Shown here piece after piece: positions 38,847-54,030 of a stretch of 64,000 nt of DNA (positions are counted from its first letter, which is position 1; every line of letters begins with the position of its first letter). The translations under genes and the position numbers were made by a program. The stretch is from the NCBI GenBank assembly GCA_026394395.1, contig JAPKYK010000005.1, positions 65,500-129,499 on the forward strand, read 5' to 3'. This DNA is from Methanomassiliicoccales archaeon. Lineage in GTDB: Archaea; Thermoplasmatota; Thermoplasmata; Methanomassiliicoccales; UBA472. The notes under the pieces were generated by a model. That model saw nothing but the letters and a program-made list of their open reading frames with translations. It made no database searches and was not told the origin of the DNA.

Positions 38847-38895
38847 GTCTAAATTGAAATTTGGAGGCAGCAAACTATTTAGGAGGAAATTAAAA

Positions 38896-39531
38896 ATGGC
38901 AAACATGGATGCATTGATCGAGATTGTTGTCAAGGGGAAGATTAAAGAGGCCAAGGGAGCCACCCAGGCGCTCTTGGACCAAGGAGTGACCGCTAAAGAG
39001 ATCATTTTCAAGGGCTTGAGCGAGGCCATGAAGATCGTCGGTGACAAGTACGAGAAGAAGGAGTACTTCCTGCCGCAGGTTCTTCTGTCCGCTCAGACCC
39101 TGTACCAGGGATTGAACGTGGCCCTGCCTAAGCTCGATGCTACCTCCGCTGCAGCCGCCGGAAAGATAGTCATCTGCGTGGTCGAGGGAGATGTGCACGA
39201 CATCGGTAAGAACATCTGCAAGGCCCTGCTGACCGGCGCCGGCAACACCATGTTCGACCTGGGACGCGACGTGCCCCTGAAGGACATCGTGCAGAAGGCT
39301 AAGGACGAGAGCGCCCAGATCATCGCCACCTCAACCCTCATGACCCCCACCCTGGCGGGCATGAAGGAGATCGAGAAGATGCTTAAGGAAGCCGGCCTGA
39401 AGGGCAAGATAAAGACCATGGTTGGTGGCGGCGCTACCTCCTCGGACTTTGCCAAGAGCATCGGCGCAGACGGATGGGGCTACGACGCCAACGAGGCGGT
39501 CCAAGTCGCCATCAAGCTGCTCGCGAAGTAA
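38896..39531 (+). CDS. methyltransferase cognate corrinoid protein (B12-binding, MtmC/MtbC/MtsB-like size)
   Basis: 211 aa from MANMDALIEIV. It has an N-terminal helical cap, the His-on motif GDVHDIGKN, STLMT and MVGGGA. I reject the 14-aa extension in the ORF track. Confidence 0.9.
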   Translation: MANMDALIEIVVKGKIKEAKGATQALLDQGVTAKEIIFKGLSEAMKIVGDKYEKKEYFLPQVLLSAQTLYQGLNVALPKLDATSAAAAGKIVICVVEGDVHDIGKNICKALLTGAGNTMFDLGRDVPLKDIVQKAKDESAQIIATSTLMTPTLAGMKEIEKMLKEAGLKGKIKTMVGGGATSSDFAKSIGADGWGYDANEAVQVAIKLLAK

Positions 39532-40531: not shown

Positions 40532-41926
40532 ATGGTCATCATCGGCAATAGGGTGAGGGCGACGAAGGTCTTTTCCAGCCGGGCGATCCTTGGGATGTTG
40601 TTGGGATGGGCCCTGGCCTTCGAAGGGTTCTTCGCCCTTTCTATCGCCAATTCGGCCACCATAGAAGGCATTGGTGGCATCAAAGCCTCGACGTTCTCAT
40701 TGGCCGCCACCCAGCTCGTCTTGTTGGGTGCGTTCATCTCCATCGTCTGGGTTATTAAGGCGGCACTTCCCGAAATCGACAAAAGGATATGGGGAAAGCT
40801 ATTGAGCCTCCTCACCTACCTGGGGATGGCCCTAATAATCCTCGAAGGTTTGATTATCGTATTCAATGCCGGGGATGTGGTAGTAACCAATTTCGGGAAA
40901 GTCTCCAAGATATACATCGTGCTAACTGGGGCGCAGCTATTCGCCTTGGGCGGACTCTCCCTACGGCTGTGGCGGCTGCGAAACGTCCAACCAACCAACT
41001 GGCTGATGGATTCCCTGGGCTCGTTCGTTGCCTCATTGCTCATGGCCGAGGGTTTGATCATTATTGGCATGGCCGCGTACACGAAAATCAAAGGATTGGG
41101 AGGGGTGCTCGAGCAAACGGTCTATAATGCTGGGGTCCAGCTTTTCTTGATCGGTGCGCTCATATTCATTCTTTGGATCATTGTTCAAGACCCATGGTTC
41201 GGTCAGAGGATAAGTAAAATACTAGCCGAAAGGAAGGTTTTCCTTATAGTTGTTGTACTTAGCTGTATTATTGCCATCGAAGGGGTCTTAGCCTCGACAT
41301 GGTCAGGGGATATAACCATCGAGGACGTCGGGGGCATACGCAAGATGTTCATCGTTGCCGGATGTGCCCAGCTCTTTGCATTAGGCGCACTTACACCTCT
41401 TCTGTGGAAGCTCCGATTACGCAAGCTGAATTTGAACTTCTTGCCAGAACTATTCAGTCCATTGGCCATGGTGGTATTGGCTACCGAGGGGGTTGTCGCC
41501 ATGGGACTAGCCGCCAGCACTCGGATCGATGGTATTGGCGGTATCAAGGAGAGCACATTCTTCCTCGCCGGAGAGCAGCTATTGATATTGTCACTAATCG
41601 GCCTATTAGCATTCCTATTGAAGGACAGCTCTATTCTAAGAAAAAGGTCCAGGCGCATAGTGATATCTTTACCGATAATATCCTTAGGCATCGTAGGGTT
41701 AGAGGGGATCGCAGCGACCGTTTTAGCTGCACAAATGTGGATCACGGACTTCAGCAGCGTGAGGGAGCAGTACGTCCTGCTTGTCGGATTACAAATGGCT
41801 ATAATCTCCGTGATAGCCCTGGCATCCTGGGCTCGTTCCGAAGGGATGACCTTTAAGTTCAAGGCCACCGCCACAGGGGCGGCGGCCTTCGTGGTCCTGA
41901 TGCTTCCCATAGCCATTCTGATATGA
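40532..41926 (+). CDS. integral membrane protein built of six tandem 2-TM modules (unrecognised family)
   Basis: 464 aa. A conserved E-G occurs at residues 31, 105, 173, 250, 319 and 391. Each is followed exactly 30 residues later by Q and 42 residues later by W (F in repeat 5). Confidence 0.7.
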   Translation: MVIIGNRVRATKVFSSRAILGMLLGWALAFEGFFALSIANSATIEGIGGIKASTFSLAATQLVLLGAFISIVWVIKAALPEIDKRIWGKLLSLLTYLGMALIILEGLIIVFNAGDVVVTNFGKVSKIYIVLTGAQLFALGGLSLRLWRLRNVQPTNWLMDSLGSFVASLLMAEGLIIIGMAAYTKIKGLGGVLEQTVYNAGVQLFLIGALIFILWIIVQDPWFGQRISKILAERKVFLIVVVLSCIIAIEGVLASTWSGDITIEDVGGIRKMFIVAGCAQLFALGALTPLLWKLRLRKLNLNFLPELFSPLAMVVLATEGVVAMGLAASTRIDGIGGIKESTFFLAGEQLLILSLIGLLAFLLKDSSILRKRSRRIVISLPIISLGIVGLEGIAATVLAAQMWITDFSSVREQYVLLVGLQMAIISVIALASWARSEGMTFKFKATATGAAAFVVLMLPIAILI

Positions 41927-41978: not shown

Positions 41979-43955
41979 ATGGCCGAAAGGAAACTTGGGT
42001 TGGGTCTAGACACGGGCGGCACGTACACGGACGCGGCAGTTGTGGACATGTCCACCTTTGAGGTGCTGGCCAAAGCGAAGTCACCCACCACCTACCACGA
42101 CCTGTCCATTGGGGTCCTGGGAGCGATCGACGGCGTCCTGAAATCAGGCAGCTTCGATCCAGCCGACATAATGTTCGTTGGCCTTTCCACAACCTTGGCC
42201 ACGAACTCCATTTTGACTGGTAAGGGGGGCAGGGTCGGTCACATCGCCATCGGGTGGACCCCAATGCAGGAATACAGGTCCGGAGCGGACATGGACGCTT
42301 ACATAAAAGGTGGCCATGGTGTATGGGCCCAGCAGCAGGAACCCCTGGATACCGAGGCGCTCAAGAAGGCCATCACGGAAATGCAACCGAACGTTGATTC
42401 ATTCGTAGTATCAGCCCATTTCAGCGTCTACAATCCCGACCATGAGAAGGAAGCCGCCCGCATGATCAAGGAAATGACCGGGATGCCCGTGGTGATGGGG
42501 CACCAACTAGCCTCCGAGCTGGGTGTGCCGGAAAGGAGCGTGACCGCTATACTGAACGCCCGGCTGCTACCGGTGTTGTCCGAATTCCTGGACGGCGTAG
42601 AGCGTTCCCTACACGAACGTGGAATAACCGCGGCCATACTGGTCTTTAAGGGGGACGGCACCCTGATGAACATCGAAACGGCTAAGGAGCGACCGGTGGA
42701 GACCATACTCTCTGGTCCGGCGGCCAGTCTCATGGGGGGTAAGGTCCTCTGCGACGAGAAGGACTTTATCATGGTGGACATCGGAGGGACGTCCACCGAT
42801 ATCGCCTATCTGGACGACGGTTTCCCCCGCATATCCAAAGAAGGGGCCACCGTGGGCAACTGGCGCACCCGGGTCAAGGCCATCGACATCTGGACCGTGG
42901 GGCTGGGGGGAGATTCGCACGTGATCTCCGACCAGAAGGGAGAGTTCAAGATCGGTCCAGAGAGGGTGGTGCCGTTGGCCATCGCCGCATCCGAATTTCC
43001 AGAAATAAAGGAAAAGATGAAGGCCACCAGTGAGACCAATTACTTCATTCATGTGGAACGGAGCACCGAAAAACTAAGCTCCAAGGAAAAAGAGGTCTAC
43101 GAGTTCGTCAAAACCCATCCGATATGCACCTTGGAGGAGATCAGGGTGGGAGCGCCAGAGGTGTACACGTACCGAGACGTGGTGAAGCGGCTCAAGAACC
43201 GCGGGTTCCTGCAGATGTGTGGGCTGACGCCCACGGACTTTATGCACGTCCAGGGTTTCTTTGACCGTTTCGACATCGAGGCGGCCAGGATGGGCGTGCA
43301 GTTCATGGCCAACTGGGCCAAGATGAACTTCGACGAGTACGTCGAGTCCTTCCACCAAGAAATGATCACCCGGATGGGCGAGGAGATCATGAGGAAGGTC
43401 GTACTGGACGGATCGAGCGAGATGCCCGATTCCCCCGGTTTCAACTACCTTCTGAGAGCGTCGGTCAACGGGAACAGGGGGAGTAACTTGGTGATGAGGA
43501 CCAATATCGGACGTCCTCTGGTAGGCATCGGAGCCCCGGCGCACATCTACATGCCGCCCCTGGAGAAGCGCATGGACGTCAAGGTGATAATACCCAAAGA
43601 ACACGACGTCGGCAACGCCGTGGGAGCGGTCTGCAGCCAGATATCTGAGACCGTTACCGTTCAGGTGTACCCGAACATGGACAACGTCTTCTTCGTGCTC
43701 GGGCCGTTCGGTTCTCCGGTCACCTACAGCCACTTGGAACAGGCCATCAGCAGCGCCCGCTGTCAGGCCGAGGAGTTCGTGAGGAACCGTGTCTACGAGG
43801 CCGGGGCTGAGAACATCCGGGTCCGCAGCGACGTAAACGCGAACAAGTTCTTCGGTGGGGACAACGTGGAAGGGGAGCAGACTGCCTGGGTGGACGTCGT
43901 GGCCCGGGCCACTGGTGACCCCAAGCCCCCGGAAAAGAAGAAGAGCTCACTCTAA
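41979..43955 (+). CDS. hydantoinase/oxoprolinase (HyuA-like) ASKHA-fold ATPase family protein
   Basis: LGLGLDTGGTYTDAAVVD at the N-terminus. The central region PERSVTAILNARLLPV...ETILSGPAASLMGG...IMVDIGGTSTDIAYL...WTVGLGGDS is characteristic of Hydantoinase_A. No HyuB partner is present in the window. Confidence 0.75.
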   Translation: MAERKLGLGLDTGGTYTDAAVVDMSTFEVLAKAKSPTTYHDLSIGVLGAIDGVLKSGSFDPADIMFVGLSTTLATNSILTGKGGRVGHIAIGWTPMQEYRSGADMDAYIKGGHGVWAQQQEPLDTEALKKAITEMQPNVDSFVVSAHFSVYNPDHEKEAARMIKEMTGMPVVMGHQLASELGVPERSVTAILNARLLPVLSEFLDGVERSLHERGITAAILVFKGDGTLMNIETAKERPVETILSGPAASLMGGKVLCDEKDFIMVDIGGTSTDIAYLDDGFPRISKEGATVGNWRTRVKAIDIWTVGLGGDSHVISDQKGEFKIGPERVVPLAIAASEFPEIKEKMKATSETNYFIHVERSTEKLSSKEKEVYEFVKTHPICTLEEIRVGAPEVYTYRDVVKRLKNRGFLQMCGLTPTDFMHVQGFFDRFDIEAARMGVQFMANWAKMNFDEYVESFHQEMITRMGEEIMRKVVLDGSSEMPDSPGFNYLLRASVNGNRGSNLVMRTNIGRPLVGIGAPAHIYMPPLEKRMDVKVIIPKEHDVGNAVGAVCSQISETVTVQVYPNMDNVFFVLGPFGSPVTYSHLEQAISSARCQAEEFVRNRVYEAGAENIRVRSDVNANKFFGGDNVEGEQTAWVDVVARATGDPKPPEKKKSSL

Positions 43956-46145: not shown

Positions 46146-47165
46146 TTAGCCCTTTACGGACTTGACCAGTGCGGCCAGATTGTCGTTCGAGATCAGGGCG
46201 GAAAGCCCGCATCCCGGAGAGACCACATCGAAGCCGGCGGCAGCGCAGCGCTTTCCGTGGGCCAGGACGTCCGCAGGGGTTCCCTGCAGCAGCGGGTTGA
46301 CGACACCGACGTTACCGATCAGGGCGGCGCGGTGGTTGACGATCTTGACCGCGTCTTCCGGAACGACCTTCTCCTCGATGGACAGGGCCTTGCATCCGGT
46401 GTTGATCATGTTGTTCAGGATGTCGGTTGTATTGCCGCATATGTGCAGGCAACCAGTGGCTCCCTTGACCGGGGCCAGGCTATCGGCCATGTAAATGCCC
46501 GCGTACTCGTTGAACATGTCCGGGGACAGTAGGTCGGTGCTGGCGGACGGCTCGGACATCTGCACGACATCGGCACCGGCATCGGCCAGGGCTTGGCTGT
46601 ATCCCTTGCAGATGACGTTAGCGGCCTTGACCCAATTGTGCACCAGGGGTGGGTCCACCATGATGTACAGCACGAGGTTCTCGGTGCTGACCAGATGACC
46701 GGCCAAGGTGAACGGTCCGGTGTTACCGGCGATGATCGGGTACTCGTGGCCATACTGGGCCTTCATCTTCTTTACGGCTTCCTGGCAGATGGCGGCGCGG
46801 CCGCTCTTGAGGAACGTGGTAACGTCCATCAGATTGGGCGTGTCCTCCATCTGGTAGGGATGCCCCTTAACCATGGGGGTCCTGTCCTTGCGGCCTGGAT
46901 CCACCTTGGTCACTCCCAAGCTGTCAATCTCAACGGTCAGGCAGAACGGGCACCTGACGGCCTCGAACCCGAAGACCTTGGCCTGTCCGGCACCCAGCTT
47001 GACCATCAGGTCGGCGTTGTAGTGGGCGTCGGGCCAGCTGACACCTAATGCGTCCATCTGTCCCATAGTGGCGCTCTGTGTGAAAACCGCGACCGGCGGC
47101 CTTTCATGCTGCTTGCCCTTCAATGCATCCAGTACTCTCTCCCTTGGAGTTATGTTTTTAGACAA
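46146..47165 (-). CDS. mtaA: methylcobamide:CoM methyltransferase (MtaA/MtbA type, URO-D family)
   Basis: 339 aa. ITPRERVLDALKGKQHERPPV and the Zn-ligand pattern HICGN ... SPGCG. Whether it is the MtaA or MtbA isozyme cannot be told from the sequence by eye. Confidence 0.85.
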   Translation of the reverse strand: MSKNITPRERVLDALKGKQHERPPVAVFTQSATMGQMDALGVSWPDAHYNADLMVKLGAGQAKVFGFEAVRCPFCLTVEIDSLGVTKVDPGRKDRTPMVKGHPYQMEDTPNLMDVTTFLKSGRAAICQEAVKKMKAQYGHEYPIIAGNTGPFTLAGHLVSTENLVLYIMVDPPLVHNWVKAANVICKGYSQALADAGADVVQMSEPSASTDLLSPDMFNEYAGIYMADSLAPVKGATGCLHICGNTTDILNNMINTGCKALSIEEKVVPEDAVKIVNHRAALIGNVGVVNPLLQGTPADVLAHGKRCAAAGFDVVSPGCGLSALISNDNLAALVKSVKG

Positions 47166-48442: not shown

Positions 48443-48910
48443 TCAGTCCTTGATCCTCTTTTCCTTCTCGTAGAAGTCGTTGATGATCTCGTAGTCGATC
48501 TTGCGCTCTGACATGAAGATCTTGGTCACGTCCAGTGACGCCGCTCGTACCTGCGGGTCCCACATGCCGTGAACGATGACGTGCACAATCAGCTCACCGC
48601 GGTTCATGAGCGTCCCGTCGAAACGGTTCTGCACCGTCGGGGGTATGTCCAGGTCGATGAGGCTGAAGCTAATGGTGGAGCCTCCTTCGGCAGTAAGGAA
48701 CGATTTGATGTGTCCGATCATGTCCGCTCCTTCCCGGAAGCATTCCATAGTGATTCTATTCAGCAGGTCCAGGACCATGTCCTCGGACTGCTTTCCGTCC
48801 AGCGCGTCAGGGATGTAGAGCCGGAGCCACATGGAGAACTTGCCCAGCTCGTCCGTGGCCCGGTGCGTCAGCAGCTGGCGTTCCTTTTGATCCATTCCTT
48901 CACTCTCCAT
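48443..48910 (-). CDS. hypothetical protein, possibly a detached CobW_C-like domain
   Basis: 155 aa. It overlaps the stop of the upstream COG0523 GTPase gene by 11 nt. The segment IGHIKSFLTAEGGSTISFSL...ELIVHVIVHG loosely resembles the CobW C-terminal domain. The assignment is tentative. Confidence 0.5.
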   Translation of the reverse strand: MESEGMDQKERQLLTHRATDELGKFSMWLRLYIPDALDGKQSEDMVLDLLNRITMECFREGADMIGHIKSFLTAEGGSTISFSLIDLDIPPTVQNRFDGTLMNRGELIVHVIVHGMWDPQVRAASLDVTKIFMSERKIDYEIINDFYEKEKRIKD

Positions 48911-49565
48911 ACTTCTTGTCGAAGCGGTCCTCCGCCTCGGTGAGGTCGTACACCACAGCCTTGCCGTTCACCATGATGTCGGCAACATCCTTCACGCCCT
49001 GCCCGGTTCTTGCAGAACCGTACAGCAGCTTGACCTGGGGGTTCAGGTCCAGGACCAACTTGGTGACCTTGTCCAAGCGCTCGCGGTCCACGGCATCCAC
49101 CTTGTTGATGAGGACGGCGTCCGCCTCTATGATCTGGGTCTCGACCAAGCGGCGCACGTTGTTCATCAGCTTGTCGATGCGTATGGCGTCCACGAAGGTG
49201 ATAATAGGTGCCTGTTCCAGGATCTTGGGCATCTTCTTGACCGTCTCCGCCGCAGCCTGCTTCAGGCCCAGAGGGATGGCCACCCCGGTCGGTTCGACCA
49301 AGATGACGTCCGGCTTGAAGCTCATGTAGATGTTGGTGACTGTGGTGGTCAACGTACCTTGCACCTCACAGCATATGCAGCCGCCGGAGATCTCCATGGT
49401 GTCGATCCCATGGACCTCCATGCACTTGCGGTCGACGTTGATATGGCCGACATCGTTGACGATGGTCGCCACCTTCAAACCCCGCAAATTAAGCTCCTTG
49501 GCCACTTCGATCAGGAAGGTGGTCTTTCCGCTTCCCAAGAAACCGGTAACCTGGGCGATCCTCAT
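48900..49565 (-). CDS. COG0523 (CobW/YjiA-like) G3E-family metallochaperone GTPase, N-domain only
   Basis: P-loop GFLGSGKTT, metal motif GCICC, EPTG and NKVD. At 221 aa it lacks the usual fused C-terminal domain. Confidence 0.8.
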   Translation of the reverse strand: MRIAQVTGFLGSGKTTFLIEVAKELNLRGLKVATIVNDVGHINVDRKCMEVHGIDTMEISGGCICCEVQGTLTTTVTNIYMSFKPDVILVEPTGVAIPLGLKQAAAETVKKMPKILEQAPIITFVDAIRIDKLMNNVRRLVETQIIEADAVLINKVDAVDRERLDKVTKLVLDLNPQVKLLYGSARTGQGVKDVADIMVNGKAVVYDLTEAEDRFDKKYGE

Positions 49566-49722: not shown

Positions 49723-51372
49723 ATGGCATTGGGAGTTGCGCTCGACTTGGGCACAAGTGGCTACCGGGGTCACCTGGTCGATCTGAACAAGAAGGGAAAG
49801 ATTCTGGCTACGGCCATCACCATGAGACACCCCCTGCCGGGCGCCAACATCATGGACCATCTGCATTTCTGGATGGAGAACGGGGCCGACGTCGGGCACC
49901 GCATAATCATCGAGACCGTGGACCGATTGATAGGCACCCTGGGCGCCAAGCCCGAGGAGATCGTCCGGGTATCCGTCTGCGGCAACCCCGCCCAGATGTC
50001 CATGTTCGAGAAGATCGAGATACGCGATCTGGCCTACGCCGGCCAGTCCCTGCTCAAGAGGCTGAACGTAAAGGTACCCGAGAGAAAGGCCCACACCATC
50101 AAGGCCGAGGAGCTGGGCATGAGGTCAGTCAGGCAGACCGCCGAGGTCCGCATACCCCCGTCCATCCGTCACGAGATCGGCGCCGACGCCCTGGCCATGA
50201 TCATGAAGACCGGGCTCATGAACAAAAAGGAGACCTGCATGGTCACGGACTACGGCACCAACGCCGAGATGGGACTGTTCTACAAGGGCGAGCTCTTTAC
50301 CGGTTCGGCAGCCGCCGGACCGGCCATGGAAGGGCAGTCCATTGAAATGGGCATGCTGGCCGCTCCCCAGGCATTGTCCGATGTCATCCTGAACGAAGAT
50401 GGCCGCTGGTACAACGTAGTGCTCAACGAAAATCTGCATCCAGTTAAGTCGTCCTTAGTCGATCCGCGCACCGGTCAGGAGCAGCGGCTGGACGGCGTGA
50501 TCGCCCGGGGCATCACCGGCACCGGCACAGTGGCCGCCATGGCCGTGGGGTTGGAGACAGGCATAATCAAGCTGCCCTACATCGACACCCCCGACCGCAA
50601 GATCCACATGACCAATGGCATACACTTCGGCGAAGAGGACGTGCGCGAAGCAGGCAAGGCCATCGGAGCCATCCGCGCCGGGCACCGCACCCTGATCGAA
50701 GAAGTTGGCGTTGCCGACGAAGATGTAAAGACCATGTACATGTGCGGCGCGTCCGGTACGTACGTGGACCCGATAAAGGCTCAGACCGTAGGGCTCATAC
50801 CCAGGGTCCTGGAAAAGACCGTGCAGGCCGGCAACACCTCGCTGATGATGTCCTATGACATACTGGTCGACGATAACGGGCTGGACCACATGCAGGACGT
50901 GGCCAACGCCATATCCAGCAAGCACATAATGTTCGCCACCTGCAAGGTCTTCGAGGACATATACGTCAACGAGATCGCCTACTGGACCGAGGGCATGTCC
51001 ATGGAGATGTACAATGAAATGGTCAAGTACGCTGGATTGAGGCCCCTGCCGGACATAAAGCGCCCCAAAGAGATCGTGCGCTTAGTTTCGTCCGACATAC
51101 CGGTCATCGGCGCCCGCGGTCTGAGGACCCTTGACGACATAGGCGTGTACCTCATCGGCTCCTTCGAGCACTGCGTCGGCTGCAAGAAATGCCAGAAAGA
51201 GTGCCCGGAATGCGCCCTGCAGGTGTCCTCGATGGGTAACAAGAAATTCCAGATCAGGATAAACACCGAGCGCTGCCTGGGAACCGCCTGCAAGAAGTGC
51301 CAGGCCGTCTGTCCGGAGAGCGTGATGAGCTTCGCCGCCCTGAAGATCGTGAAGAAGGGCGAGGACGCATAA
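49723..51372 (+). CDS. ramA: corrinoid protein reductive activase RamA (ASKHA ATPase + C-terminal 2x[4Fe-4S] ferredoxin domain)
   Basis: ALDLGTSGYRGHLVD at the N-terminus. The C-terminal CVGCKKCQKECPECA and CLGTACKKCQAVCPES match the RamA architecture, with ferredoxin motifs at the C-terminus. Confidence 0.85.
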   Translation: MALGVALDLGTSGYRGHLVDLNKKGKILATAITMRHPLPGANIMDHLHFWMENGADVGHRIIIETVDRLIGTLGAKPEEIVRVSVCGNPAQMSMFEKIEIRDLAYAGQSLLKRLNVKVPERKAHTIKAEELGMRSVRQTAEVRIPPSIRHEIGADALAMIMKTGLMNKKETCMVTDYGTNAEMGLFYKGELFTGSAAAGPAMEGQSIEMGMLAAPQALSDVILNEDGRWYNVVLNENLHPVKSSLVDPRTGQEQRLDGVIARGITGTGTVAAMAVGLETGIIKLPYIDTPDRKIHMTNGIHFGEEDVREAGKAIGAIRAGHRTLIEEVGVADEDVKTMYMCGASGTYVDPIKAQTVGLIPRVLEKTVQAGNTSLMMSYDILVDDNGLDHMQDVANAISSKHIMFATCKVFEDIYVNEIAYWTEGMSMEMYNEMVKYAGLRPLPDIKRPKEIVRLVSSDIPVIGARGLRTLDDIGVYLIGSFEHCVGCKKCQKECPECALQVSSMGNKKFQIRINTERCLGTACKKCQAVCPESVMSFAALKIVKKGEDA

Positions 51373-51373
51373 C

Positions 51374-52219
51374 TTGCGCATAACCTGCGTCGTCGACGAC
51401 AACACCGGCGCCCTTGCCGGCGTCCGGAACGTTAAAAAAGCCCCCGGCCGGTTCCTGTCCGAGCACGGCTTATCGTTGCTCATAGAGACGGACGCAAGCA
51501 AGAAGGTCCTCCTGGACGCCGGGTCGTCCGAGACGGTGTTCTCTCATAACCTGGCTGCCTTAGGCCTTACGCCCAAGGACCTGGACCTGGTGTTCATTTC
51601 CCACGGGCACTACGATCATCTGGGGGCGCTGCCCATGCTGCTCCGGACCGGCATCCCCTGCTTCACGGACCCCCGGACCTTCTCCGGGGAAAGGTTCGTT
51701 GAGTCCTCCGGTAAGCGGAAAGAGATCGGCGCATCCCCGGAGCTTCTCGCCCTTCTGGCCGAGCATCCGCCCCAGATGGACAGCGGCCCAAGGGAGCTGT
51801 TGCCGGGGGTCAGCACCACCGGCGAGGTCATGCGCTCCAGCAGCTTCGAGGTTCCCGCCTCCTTCGTGCTGCGCCGCAATGGGAAGGAGGTCCCGGACCT
51901 CATCCTCGAGGAGCAAGCGCTGTGCGTTTCCACGCGCAAAGGCCTGGTGATATTGACCGGCTGCGGCCACGCCGGAGTGGTCAACATCGTGTCCCAGATC
52001 AAGCGCCACAGCGAACGAAAGCTGTACATGGTCATGGGCGGTTTCCATCTGTGGAACGCCTCTCAGGACACCCTGCTCAAGACCATGGACGGCCTGAAGA
52101 GGTTGGGGGTGGAGAAGGTGGCGCCCATGCACTGCTCTGGTTTTGAGGCCACCAAGATGTTCTCCGACCGCTTCCCCGGCTTCGAGCTCATGGGCAGCGG
52201 GTGCTACATGGACATCTAA
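51374..52219 (+). CDS. MBL-fold metallo-hydrolase (COG1237/MJ0301-like)
   Basis: FLSEHGLSLLIE...LLDAGSS...ISHGHYDHLGAL...TGCGHAGVVN...GGFHL. The TTG start lies 1 nt after the ramA stop. Confidence 0.7.
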   Translation: MRITCVVDDNTGALAGVRNVKKAPGRFLSEHGLSLLIETDASKKVLLDAGSSETVFSHNLAALGLTPKDLDLVFISHGHYDHLGALPMLLRTGIPCFTDPRTFSGERFVESSGKRKEIGASPELLALLAEHPPQMDSGPRELLPGVSTTGEVMRSSSFEVPASFVLRRNGKEVPDLILEEQALCVSTRKGLVILTGCGHAGVVNIVSQIKRHSERKLYMVMGGFHLWNASQDTLLKTMDGLKRLGVEKVAPMHCSGFEATKMFSDRFPGFELMGSGCYMDI

Positions 52220-53100
52220 AGGTCTTGGGCGGACTGTTCCAGCATCAGGTCGACGAAGGCGGCCACGGGCATGGTCCGCTTGGCGTATTCCAGCGGTCCG
52301 TATACGACGTAGTCGGCCCCGGCCATCATGCTGACGGCGACGGCCGAGCTGTCCACGTGCCTGCGGGCCTCCTTCGGGTCGGCCATCTCTTCGAGGTCCA
52401 GGCATTCCACAGCGTTGTGCAATGCGCAACCTGTGGGCAGCCCCCACTTGGCCTTAGCTACCATGATCGCGCGCAGGGCCGAACCGGCGCTGAGCTGCGG
52501 TGAGGTCACGGCCATGTCCAGCAGCAGGTTCTTGATGCCCAGTTCTTCGGCCGTGGTCACCAGTCCCTGGGATACGAGCTCGTCCCCGTTCTCGAGCATG
52601 TAGATGCGGCCTTTGACGTCATCCCCCCGGGGGTTGAAGGCCAGCACCACGGCGTTGACCGGGGGCGATCTCCTGAGCGCCTCCATCTCTTCCGACGATA
52701 TACCCGCGTTGATGGTGTTGTAGATGATCCGGTCCAGCACTCCCATCTCCTCGGCGTGCCTAAGGAAGGATAGGCGGACCTCGGCGGTCCCCGAGTCCAC
52801 GAACAACGGTCCAGGGACCTTGTCGCACACCGCCTCGAGGTAGTTGTGCGAAGCCCCCTTGCTCTCGGCATAGAGCATGAGGGCCGAAGGGCAATGGCAG
52901 TTGTCCGTGACCTGCAGATAGCTCTCGAGCCGTTCGTTAAGTTTCGCTTTGTCCAATGAACCCTTTCGGGGGTCGAGCACTACGGTATGACGAGGATAGA
53001 AGAGGGAACCGACCATCATCGTGCGCCTCTTCCCTGGCTGACCGCCGACGCTCACGCCACCTATGCATATCTCCTTCTGAACGGTCTGGAACTTGAACAT
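52216..53100 (-). CDS. mtrH: MtrH-family methyltransferase (methyl-pterin:corrinoid type)
   Basis: 294 aa. MFKFQTVQKEICIGGVSVGGQPGKRRTMMVGSLFY..., NTINAG and LLDMAVT match my recollection of MtrH/MtgA-like proteins. No other mtr membrane subunits are nearby. Confidence 0.8.
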   Translation of the reverse strand: MFKFQTVQKEICIGGVSVGGQPGKRRTMMVGSLFYPRHTVVLDPRKGSLDKAKLNERLESYLQVTDNCHCPSALMLYAESKGASHNYLEAVCDKVPGPLFVDSGTAEVRLSFLRHAEEMGVLDRIIYNTINAGISSEEMEALRRSPPVNAVVLAFNPRGDDVKGRIYMLENGDELVSQGLVTTAEELGIKNLLLDMAVTSPQLSAGSALRAIMVAKAKWGLPTGCALHNAVECLDLEEMADPKEARRHVDSSAVAVSMMAGADYVVYGPLEYAKRTMPVAAFVDLMLEQSAQDL

Positions 53101-53101
53101 C

Positions 53102-53866
53102 TCACACCCCCATAAGATAGGAACGCAATCTCAACGCCAGCTCTACCGACGGGACTGTTAACAGCTGACCCTGGAGCGGTTCAAGTACCACCCCGAACTC
53201 CTCCGAGACCACGATCATGCCTATGCCAGTGTTCAGGCCGTCCGAAGGCAACCGCAGCATGGGCGAGATGAAATCGTCCGAGGCCAGGTGCAACTGCTTG
53301 GCGATCTTGCCGCCCTCTCCGGCCAGGGCCTTCGAACGGACGATCACGGCCGATCCGGGGAAGGGCGAGAACTCCTTGGTCCTTAGCTCCTTCAGCTTGG
53401 CCAACAACCTCTTTCGGTTCTTCTCGTCGAACTCGTAGATCGGATCATAGGCCTGCAGCTCCTGGGCCGGCGAATCGTCCATGATGTCGACTATCTCCAC
53501 CTGCTCCCGGAACCGTTCGATGGCCTCGAGGGGAAGGTCGCAGAGGAACGGTATGGCCGACCTGGTGCCGATTATACGGCGGTGCTCGTCCACACCGTTG
53601 TCCATGAGGGCGTGTATGGCCGCCCCGGGGAAATGTCCGTACTCCTCTTTGCCACAGAGCACCAGCACCCTTATCACTGGATTGGAGACGATGTTGACTA
53701 TGACCTTCTCCAGCCCGATGTTCTCGGTCTTCAATATGCCTTTGATACAGAACAGCTCCGGCGGGACCTCCACGGCTCCCCTGCCGACGATGAGCACGGC
53801 GACAGGCGAACCTTCGTTGCCTATCACGTAATCCCCACTGGCCACTGGCCACACATCTGAATCCAT
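53102..53866 (-). CDS. mtrA: soluble MtrA-like corrinoid-binding protein
   Basis: MDSDVWPVASGDYVIGNEGSPVAVLIV...TENIGLEKVIVNIVSNPVIRVLVLCGKEEYGHFPGAAIHALMDNGVD...RFREQVEIVDI is MtrA-like. The SD GGAGTGG and a TTTTATATATAA element (53899-53910) support the ATG at 53866, not 53956. I see no obvious C-terminal TM anchor. Confidence 0.75.
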   Translation of the reverse strand: MDSDVWPVASGDYVIGNEGSPVAVLIVGRGAVEVPPELFCIKGILKTENIGLEKVIVNIVSNPVIRVLVLCGKEEYGHFPGAAIHALMDNGVDEHRRIIGTRSAIPFLCDLPLEAIERFREQVEIVDIMDDSPAQELQAYDPIYEFDEKNRKRLLAKLKELRTKEFSPFPGSAVIVRSKALAGEGGKIAKQLHLASDDFISPMLRLPSDGLNTGIGMIVVSEEFGVVLEPLQGQLLTVPSVELALRLRSYLMGV

Positions 53867-54030
53867 GACCGCCACTCCAATCACGTATTCAATTTCAATT
53901 ATATATAAAACATCGGAAGGCCAGATGTGACGGCGAATGGGGGTTTTGTCAGACAAAATCCAATTTCGGTGTTAGGGGGATAAGCGATAAATACACCCCG
54001 TTTTGTAATACGGCCCCAGGAAGGGATAAA

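Follow-up and report, generated by a model that had tools for sequence, protein, structure and literature searches.

The stretch of DNA presented above, hereafter the window (64,000 nucleotides, positions 65,500 to 129,499 of contig JAPKYK010000005.1 in assembly GCA_026394395.1, from a Methanomassiliicoccales archaeon), carries two adjacent genes encoding soluble relatives of MtrA, the corrinoid carrier, and of MtrH, the methyl-pterin:corrinoid methyltransferase, of the Mtr complex of methanogens. Methanomassiliicoccales are viewed as obligate H2-dependent methyl reducers that have lost the whole one-carbon (C1) branch and Mtr. We lean towards the reading that the pair forms a soluble methyl-tetrahydrofolate (methyl-H4F):corrinoid methyltransferase module, for which the coenzyme M (CoM) half-reaction would be carried out in trans by an MtaA-type enzyme and reactivation of the corrinoid would be ensured by RamA. 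The pair is read in this way because MtrH-family enzymes outside Mtr are methylcorrinoid:pterin methyltransferases accepting H4F, as known for MtgA and for MtoA, the latter of which worked with H4F and not with CoM in vitro (PMC8630106). Both the pair and its methyl-H4F:CoM interpretation have been known for this clade since 2018 (Speth & Orphan 2018, PMC6147122); the pair was later reported across the environmental clade (Zinke et al., bioRxiv 2020.03.09.984617; Genome Biol 2024, PMC10804542), and stand-alone MtrAH in many lineages (Adam et al. 2022). What we add are the conserved partners of the surrounding gene island, the lineage restriction of the C-terminal tail of the MtrA-like protein, an association with MetF rather than with acetyl-CoA synthase, and a genome in which the four classical families of substrate-demethylating methyltransferase (MT1) were not found. 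The features of the pair are as follows:

53102-53866, minus strand: mtrA-like gene, 254 amino acids, soluble corrinoid carrier (Pfam MtrA)
53372-53866, minus strand: corrinoid-binding Rossmann-like domain, amino acids 1 to ~165, superposing on the cytosolic domains of MtrA
53633-53635, minus strand: codon of His78, the predicted lower axial cobalt ligand, from alignment and invariance
53105-53371, minus strand: tail domain, amino acids ~166-254 (~90 amino acids), secondary structure from an AlphaFold (AF2) model, in place of the linker and transmembrane anchor of canonical MtrA
53156-53218, minus strand: beta-meander segment of the tail, amino acids 217-237, with a non-significant resemblance to the N-terminal arm of MtrB
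52216-53100, minus strand: mtrH-like gene, 294 amino acids, TIM-barrel methyl-pterin:corrinoid methyltransferase (Pfam MtrH)
53871-53877, minus strand: putative Shine-Dalgarno-like GGAGTGG, read from the sequence
53899-53909, minus strand: putative TATA-like element TTTATATATAA, read from the sequence, ~38 nucleotides upstream of the mtrA ATG

The stop codon TGA of the mtrA-like gene is followed by one G and then by the ATG of the mtrH-like gene. Since this 1-nucleotide gap is kept in relatives at 49%, 51% and 77% identity, the translational coupling of the two genes appears to be conserved. The genome (1.64 Mb, 6 contigs, 99.85% complete) contains one MtrA and one MtrH; MtrE and MtrD were not found in the whole genome (MtrB, C, F and G not being searched one by one), and no further mtr gene lies within ~10 kb of the pair. 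A sequence-only reading of the window had described adjacent MtrA-like and MtrH-like genes separated by 1 nucleotide and without membrane Mtr subunits: its coordinates are exact, the Pfam matches and the gap agree with it, and the remaining mtr genes that might have lain elsewhere did not turn up where MtrD and MtrE were looked for. A TTG further upstream (53956) was rejected as the mtrA start, homologues beginning near the ATG at 53866. Upstream of mtrA, the ATGGAT-N5-ATCCAT operator present elsewhere in the window was not found, and a terminator and promoter scan returned nothing useful, the sigma-70 model used being not apt for archaea. Note that mtrH ends in TAG (52216-52218), followed by eight in-frame sense codons and then TGA; several other open reading frames (ORFs) of the window also end in TAG, and pyrrolysine-type MtmB genes with an in-frame TAG occur in some genomes of the genus, none being found in this one. 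In a 77%-identical relative, mtrH (L009:10770-11655) is called as two overlapping ORFs of 201 and 127 amino acids, owing either to a frameshift or to a mistake in the assembly.

The MtrA-like protein matches Pfam MtrA (PF04208) with 144 bits over residues 4-139, and scores 132.7 against the NCBIfam mtrA equivalog (TIGR01111), below its cut-off of 249. It is 41-42% identical to 5laa, the cobalamin-bound MtrA homologue of Methanothermus fervidus, and also aligns to the MtrA of M. marburgensis (8q3v). In its alignment-based AF2 model (pLDDT 86, pTM 0.86), amino acids 1 to ~165 superpose on 5laa, 5l8x and 9qtr over ~176 columns (Foldseek E ~1e-15; 3e-15 for 5laa). Moreover, His78, i.e., the His of the GKEEYGHFPG motif for which a role as cobalt ligand had been suggested from the sequence alone, has its counterpart in the GSEVQGH His of 5laa and 8q3v and is invariant in 30 homologues, so the ligand is present at the position known from solved MtrA structures. 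All full-length homologues with a source name belong to Methanomassiliicoccales or Methanomassiliicoccus, ordinary MtrA proteins covering the first half only; the named MtrH homologues also come from this order, except for one MtrH cluster labelled Candidatus Saccharibacteria.

Separate from these, orphan MtrA homologues of ~217-239 amino acids, ~45-53% identical to the N-terminal half, were observed on metagenome contigs (L030, L031, L032, L033, L034) in arsenic-type clusters with an ArsR-type regulator, an ArsP permease, an SBF/ACR3-like protein, thioredoxin, DGC, a low-molecular-weight phosphatase and ArsA/ArsD, which hints at a corrinoid carrier tied to metalloid methylation. Weaker MtrA homologues (P0110, P0113, P0116, P0119, P0121), considered as members of mtr operons with a canonical MtrB, were rejected as such, being orphans in arsenic-type clusters.

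The MtrH-like protein is matched end to end by Pfam MtrH (PF02007; 231 bits, residues 8-293), scores 233 against NCBIfam mtrH (TIGR01114), below the cut-off of 271, and only 150 against the MtgA family (NF047990), far below 550. In the alignment with MtrH and MtgA, which the sequence-only reading had called for, it scores 175 bits with M. mazei MtrH (9qtp_o) and 124 bits with the H4F-dependent MtgA (6sj8). Asp103, Asn129, Asp196 and Asn230 are named as the conserved residues at the pterin ring, while Thr32, Gln75 and His229 line the site (PMC12774963); D102, N128, D195, H228 and N229 correspond here to Asp103, Asn129, Asp196, His229 and Asn230 of M. mazei MtrH/MtgA and are invariant in 30 homologues, Thr32 is conservatively replaced by Ser, and Gln75 by an invariant Met. 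In addition, Glu79 and Phe156, which are reported to touch MtrA or its corrinoid in the M. mazei enzyme (preprint 10.64898/2026.07.03.736320), have invariant equivalents here in E79 and F155. Since the residues of the pterin site and of the MtrA contact are kept, the protein looks catalytically competent, as far as its sequence indicates. The basic patch proposed to hold the tail of tetrahydromethanopterin (H4MPT) is shorter and in part acidic among members of this genus, and basic in other family members and in MtgA; its use as a discriminator between H4MPT and H4F was rejected, the patch being variable in the family and basic in MtgA too.

The genome content bears directly on the nature of the pterin. 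Among H4MPT markers, Mch and beta-ribofuranosylaminobenzene 5'-phosphate (beta-RFAP) synthase, the first step of H4MPT synthesis, were not found in this 99.85%-complete genome, and because these searched markers are missing we take H4F as the probable substrate. Fhs, FolD and MetF are present within 10 kb of each other, together with CdhC of carbon monoxide dehydrogenase/acetyl-CoA synthase (CODH/ACS), so the search for H4F- or H4MPT-dependent C1 enzymes asked for at the outset shows a full H4F methyl branch. MetF itself lies in an acetogen-style cluster with an HdrA-like flavoprotein, an Fe-S protein, MvhD/FlpD and MetV (DUF5981):

L037:6975-11474 (G000:C1:24974-29473): MetF cluster, with Fhs and FolD a few kb upstream
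L037:15861-16982: URO-D paralogue, downstream of the MetF cluster
L037:17423-18346: Pterin_bind protein, downstream of the MetF cluster

At the scale of the order, the distribution was surveyed in 201 genomes; only counts are given, as related genomes do not make independent samples. The tail-domain profile of the MtrA-like protein hits 64 of the 201 genomes, with 36/46 in family f1, 10/10 in f5, 3/4 in f3, 8/24 in f6 and 4/114 in f7. MetF occurs in 52 of the 64 tail-positive genomes versus 31 of the 137 tail-negative ones, most of the 12 exceptions being incomplete genomes, and all four tail-positive genomes of f7 are among its 10 MetF-positive ones. CdhC is more widespread (114/201), and in genus g12 the pair is present in 5/5 genomes and MetF in 4/5, CdhC not being found (0/5). 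These counts link the pair to the step at methyl-H4F, and not to acetyl-CoA synthesis in itself. Two MtrA-like copies were observed in L013:9063-11793 (in tandem before one mtrH), G037, G069, G100, G195 and G196; in some of these genomes, the second and more divergent MtrA-like copy lies at another place, sometimes without mtrH (L025, L027).

The genes around the pair also recur. Within the window, the neighbours on the mtrH side are the following:

51374-52219, plus strand: metallo-beta-lactamase (MBL)-fold protein (Pfam Lactamase_B), convergent with mtrH (4-nucleotide overlap) and coupled to ramA
49723-51372, plus strand: RamA-type reductive activase of corrinoid proteins (TIGR04270, 705 bits, above the cut-off of 500)
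48443-49565, minus strand: CobW/COG0523-type GTPase (221 amino acids, Pfam cobW) and a partner ORF of 155 amino acids
47351-48427, minus strand: divergent URO-D-family zinc methyltransferase, 358 amino acids (Pfam URO-D), a candidate CoM-methylating enzyme (MT2) for the MtrA-like carrier
46146-47165, minus strand: MtaA-type methylcobamide:CoM methyltransferase, 339 amino acids (PRK06252, 301 bits, above 244; MtaA, 305 bits)
41979-43955: orthologue of a HyuA/MutL-type ATPase, ~8 kb from the pair
40532-41926: ORF of 464 amino acids, without Pfam or NCBIfam match
38854-39531: orphan MtaC/MtgC-like corrinoid protein, near the 464-amino-acid ORF and a radical SAM gene

On the other side of the pair lie DUF1616, DUF169, ycaO-tfuA and mcrBDG(A). 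Using tblastn of the island proteins against 23 fetched loci from genomes of the order, two of which cover one and the same place so that 22 places are represented, we found a recurrent gene order in families f1, f2, f3 and f5, namely mcr, ycaO, DUF169, mtrA-mtrH, MBL-RamA, URO-D (one to four copies), HyuA-like ATPase, corrinoid protein and radical SAM, with the RamA gene syntenic with mtrAH in all four. An MtaA-type gene is found in the island of every family with long synteny, and the divergent URO-D protein has the zinc ligands of MtaA (4ay7), His-x-Cys and a distal Cys, at aligned positions. In f6, by contrast, a HyuA-like ATPase gene converges with the pair, the divergent URO-D gene being nearby; as an example, in L023 the divergent URO-D gene stands directly upstream of mtrA and mtrH on one strand, 66 nucleotides apart. 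Few genomes of the gut-associated f7 have mtrA-mtrH, and there it is found either by itself or preceded by the CobW pair, which is directly upstream of mtrA-mtrH in the gut-clade genome L029.

The C-terminal tail of the MtrA-like protein is the part in which the pair departs most visibly from the Mtr subunits. That it has no membrane anchor, unlike canonical MtrA, had been noticed from the sequence, and the Kyte-Doolittle 19-residue maximum over amino acids 140-254 is indeed 1.29, without any stretch of transmembrane quality; among the tails of 30 members, none has a hydrophobic segment of transmembrane grade, one borderline value apart. In the AF2 model, the tail begins with a long helix, continues with the conserved MLRxPSxxLxT motif and a three-stranded beta-meander, and ends with another helix. 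It is conserved among homologues spanning 45-100% identity, and D197, M203, L204, P207, S208, L211, T213, E223, P230, P239, A244, Y250 and G253 are invariant or nearly so in 30 homologues. Pfam and NCBIfam gave no match for the tail, and a Pfam search with 30 tails at E <= 10 gave no MtrB and nothing consistent. A tail-only profile run against 1.84 billion proteins recovered 17 cluster representatives, nearly all of them family proteins of ~255 amino acids or fragments thereof. In terms of sequence, the tail is a lineage-restricted orphan domain. Fold searches with the tail alone remained at noise level with VIA-align (best Z 5.3, 1ybz), and Foldseek against the Protein Data Bank (PDB) gave nothing at E <= 0.001, no Foldseek match reaching Z 2 on re-alignment.

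One resemblance nevertheless deserves to be weighed. In the Mtr complex, MtrB residues 1-23 are reported to make up a three-stranded sheet to which the MtrH dimer binds; Arg5(B) is joined to Asp5(H) and Glu9(B) to Arg211(H) by salt bridges, and the MtrB pocket lies at the MtrH dimer interface (PMC12774963). When the meander is set on MtrB residues 3-21 from the PDB in one register, E223, P230 and G233 fall on Glu9, Pro and Gly and the three predicted strands coincide; on the MtrH side, Arg211 is retained as R210 (29/30), whereas neither residue of the Arg5/Asp5 pair remains, Asp5 being replaced by Gln. Foldseek with the tail model ranked the 27-residue MtrB chain 9qtp_E second of 350,542 (23 columns, rmsd 1.0 A, E 3.6), this chain being too short for structural re-alignment with the tail. 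Profiles of the tail and of the meander gave no MtrB match among PDB sequences, MtrB fragments ranked 115 and 360 among 28,992 genome ORFs in a HMMER test of the resemblance, and a two-sequence MtrB profile missed the MtrA-like protein of the window. Only two right-place matches of the MtrB profile, P0086 (domain 8.7 bits) and P0092 (6.9 bits), exceeded the whole-sequence score of 6.0 bits that was the highest among 600 shuffled controls. A prediction of the 1:1 complex of the MtrH-like and MtrA-like proteins with alignments scored 0.09, its stoichiometry being probably wrong as MtrH is a dimer. We therefore put forward only tentatively, and with more doubt than confidence, that the tail meander mimics the MtrB arm on which MtrH docks.

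Taken in sequence, the reaction that we favour would start with the binding of N5-methyl-H4F by the MtrH-like TIM barrel, which would exchange the methyl group with the cob(I)/methyl-cob(III)amide that the MtrA-like carrier binds in the His-on state. Because the MtrCDE membrane unit is absent (MtrD and MtrE not being found), the CoM half-reaction would take place in trans on a zinc-dependent URO-D-family MT2, either the MtaA-type enzyme or the divergent 358-amino-acid paralogue of the island, and RamA would re-reduce adventitiously oxidised Co(II). The tail, in place of a membrane anchor, would most likely keep the carrier near the MtrH dimer. The net reaction would be CH3-H4F + HS-CoM <-> H4F + CH3-S-CoM without sodium pumping, joining the folate C1 pool (Fhs, FolD, MetVF, with or without CODH/ACS) to the methyl-CoM pool. 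The sequence-only reading had already proposed a minimal soluble methyl-pterin:corrinoid shuttle, maybe a link between corrinoid and folate; His78, the invariant pterin-ring residues, the H4F branch and the failure to find H4MPT markers or membrane subunits all point the same way. The other role named in that reading, an alternative MT1 plus carrier, may apply instead.

As regards direction, CH3-H4F to CoM is exergonic but costs ATP via Fhs, and methyl-corrinoid to H4F is unproblematic. The Pfam families MtaB, MtmB, MtbB (Dimeth_Pyl) and MttB were not found in this mcr-bearing genome, and for this reason a flux from H4F to CoM is raised as a possibility here. In genus g1, MtaB and MtmB are each found in 4/16 genomes, and several other genomes that are at least 94% complete are without all four classical families. 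The genome has six URO-D paralogues, and since some of them could be MtsA-like methylthiol enzymes, methyl groups may also come from another source. If no other donor is active, no route to methyl-CoM would be recognisable apart from MtrH, MtrA and an MtaA-type enzyme, and methane would be made from folate-bound C1 (CO2/formate or acetate) without the Mtr sodium pump, a scenario that we regard as quite improbable.

Several points speak against the favoured reading. Transfer from CH3-CoM to CH3-pterin is endergonic without sodium coupling (PMC6147122), SG8-5 genomes with mtrAH were reported without the Wood-Ljungdahl pathway (bioRxiv 2020.03.09.984617), and no experimental test of the pair was found in the literature up to late 2026. 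Moreover, the sequence cannot tell H4F from another pterin, the basic exit patch being uninformative, and the divergent URO-D gene is not strictly co-distributed with the pair, since f5 has the tail in 10/10 genomes against 1/10 for the paralogue, the opposite being seen in g4. The proximity of MtaA and RamA may also reflect a general methanogenesis island only, because methyl-reducing methanogenesis needs both anyway.

Alternatively, the pair might belong to a demethylation module of the Mto/Mtg kind without any CoM step, in which an MT1 (a URO-D or an unrecognised island protein) would methylate the MtrA-like carrier from some methylated compound and MtrH would act as MT2, passing the methyl group to H4F to be oxidised or assimilated. 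Those stand-alone MtrH-family enzymes that have been characterised act in this way, namely MtgA and MtoA, the latter with H4F and not with CoM (PMC8630106). An endergonic step from CoM to pterin is not needed when methyl-corrinoid is the donor to H4F, some genomes have the divergent URO-D paralogue immediately next to the pair, and the orphan corrinoid and 464-amino-acid proteins share the island. However, both island URO-D proteins keep the thiol-activating zinc ligands of MtaA and find their best family matches among CoM methyltransferases, the Mto and Mtg carriers are B12-binding (MtaC-type) and not MtrA-type, and the island is attached to mcr. We consider this module unlikely. A soluble methyl-H4MPT:corrinoid methyltransferase, using the pterin of canonical Mtr, would agree with an MtrH-like sequence nearer to canonical MtrH (175 bits; NCBIfam 233) than to MtgA (124 and 150 bits); it is made very improbable by the failure to find beta-RFAP synthase and Mch, by the co-occurrence of the pair with MetF, and by the literature, in which no role of H4MPT in the order is reported (PMC6147122, PMC10804542). 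Finally, a non-functional remnant of an ancestral Mtr complex, conceivable for an order thought to stem from Mtr-bearing methanogens and in view of the MtrAH remnants discussed for several archaeal lineages (PMC9635834), is scarcely credible for intact proteins at 45-88% identity across at least five families, with invariant catalytic and ligand residues, conserved 1-nucleotide coupling and synteny, and a conserved new tail domain gained.

Other components of the island can be noted in passing. The MBL-fold protein gave generic MBL family matches only, and its position beside RamA and MtrH is kept in f1 and f5. The HyuA/MutL-type ASKHA ATPase adjoins mtrH in f6 (L008, L022, L023, L024), in the place of MBL-RamA, and may assist the corrinoid carrier as another ATP-dependent protein. 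The trio of the 464-amino-acid ORF, the corrinoid protein and the radical SAM gene recurs near the island in other families, the 464-amino-acid protein being 28% identical in L007.

A soluble link between folate C1 and methyl-CoM, if true, would change what the environmental clade is able to do, making methyl assimilation or oxidation, disproportionation of methyl compounds, and methane from acetate or CO2 possible; it would also show the catalytic core of Mtr working when detached from the pump. The gene set for reconstitution is provided here, i.e., MtrH, MtrA, RamA and two candidate MT2 enzymes, as well as a testable role for the MtrA tail.

Compared with canonical MtrA and MtrH (8q3v, 9qtp/9qts), the pair of the window shares the folds, the His ligand, the Asp/Asn/Asp/His-Asn of the pterin site, Glu79 and Phe156. 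In contrast, it has no transmembrane anchor, no CoM-methylating MtrCDE and no sodium pumping, falls below the equivalog cut-offs, and probably uses H4F instead of H4MPT. In the canonical complex, the cytosolic MtrA domain shuttles between MtrH, where it meets methyl-pterin, and MtrCDE, where it meets CoM (preprint 10.64898/2026.07.03.736320), and in the organism of the window only the MtrH station of this shuttle exists. With MtgA of Desulfitobacterium hafniense and MtoA of Methermicoccus shengliensis, the pair has in common a soluble MtrH-family enzyme, methyl transfer between corrinoid and H4F or pterin, and a clustered RamA-type activase; their carriers are B12-binding (MtaC-type) and their systems demethylate substrates with a dedicated MT1, whereas the carrier here is MtrA-type. 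CmtA of Methanosarcina acetivorans combines B12-binding and URO-D-type parts in one protein and is not known to be a homologue of MtrA or MtrH. As a soluble CH3-tetrahydrosarcinapterin:CoM methyltransferase (MA4384; Vepachedu & Ferry 2012, cited in PMC7374477), it offers a precedent for cytoplasmic, non-pumping methyl transfer from pterin to CoM that bypasses Mtr. The closest known system remains the mtrAH of the 'MALP' genome from Lake Pavin (PMC6147122), which belongs to the same order and has the same adjacent mtrA-mtrH without mtrB-G, the same C-terminal extension of MtrA and a divergent MtrH, in a genome with an H4F C1 pathway, CODH/ACS and no role for H4MPT, and for which a methyl-H4F:CoM methyltransferase function was proposed as well. 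Essentially nothing differs for the pair itself, and the window thus represents another genome of that clade.

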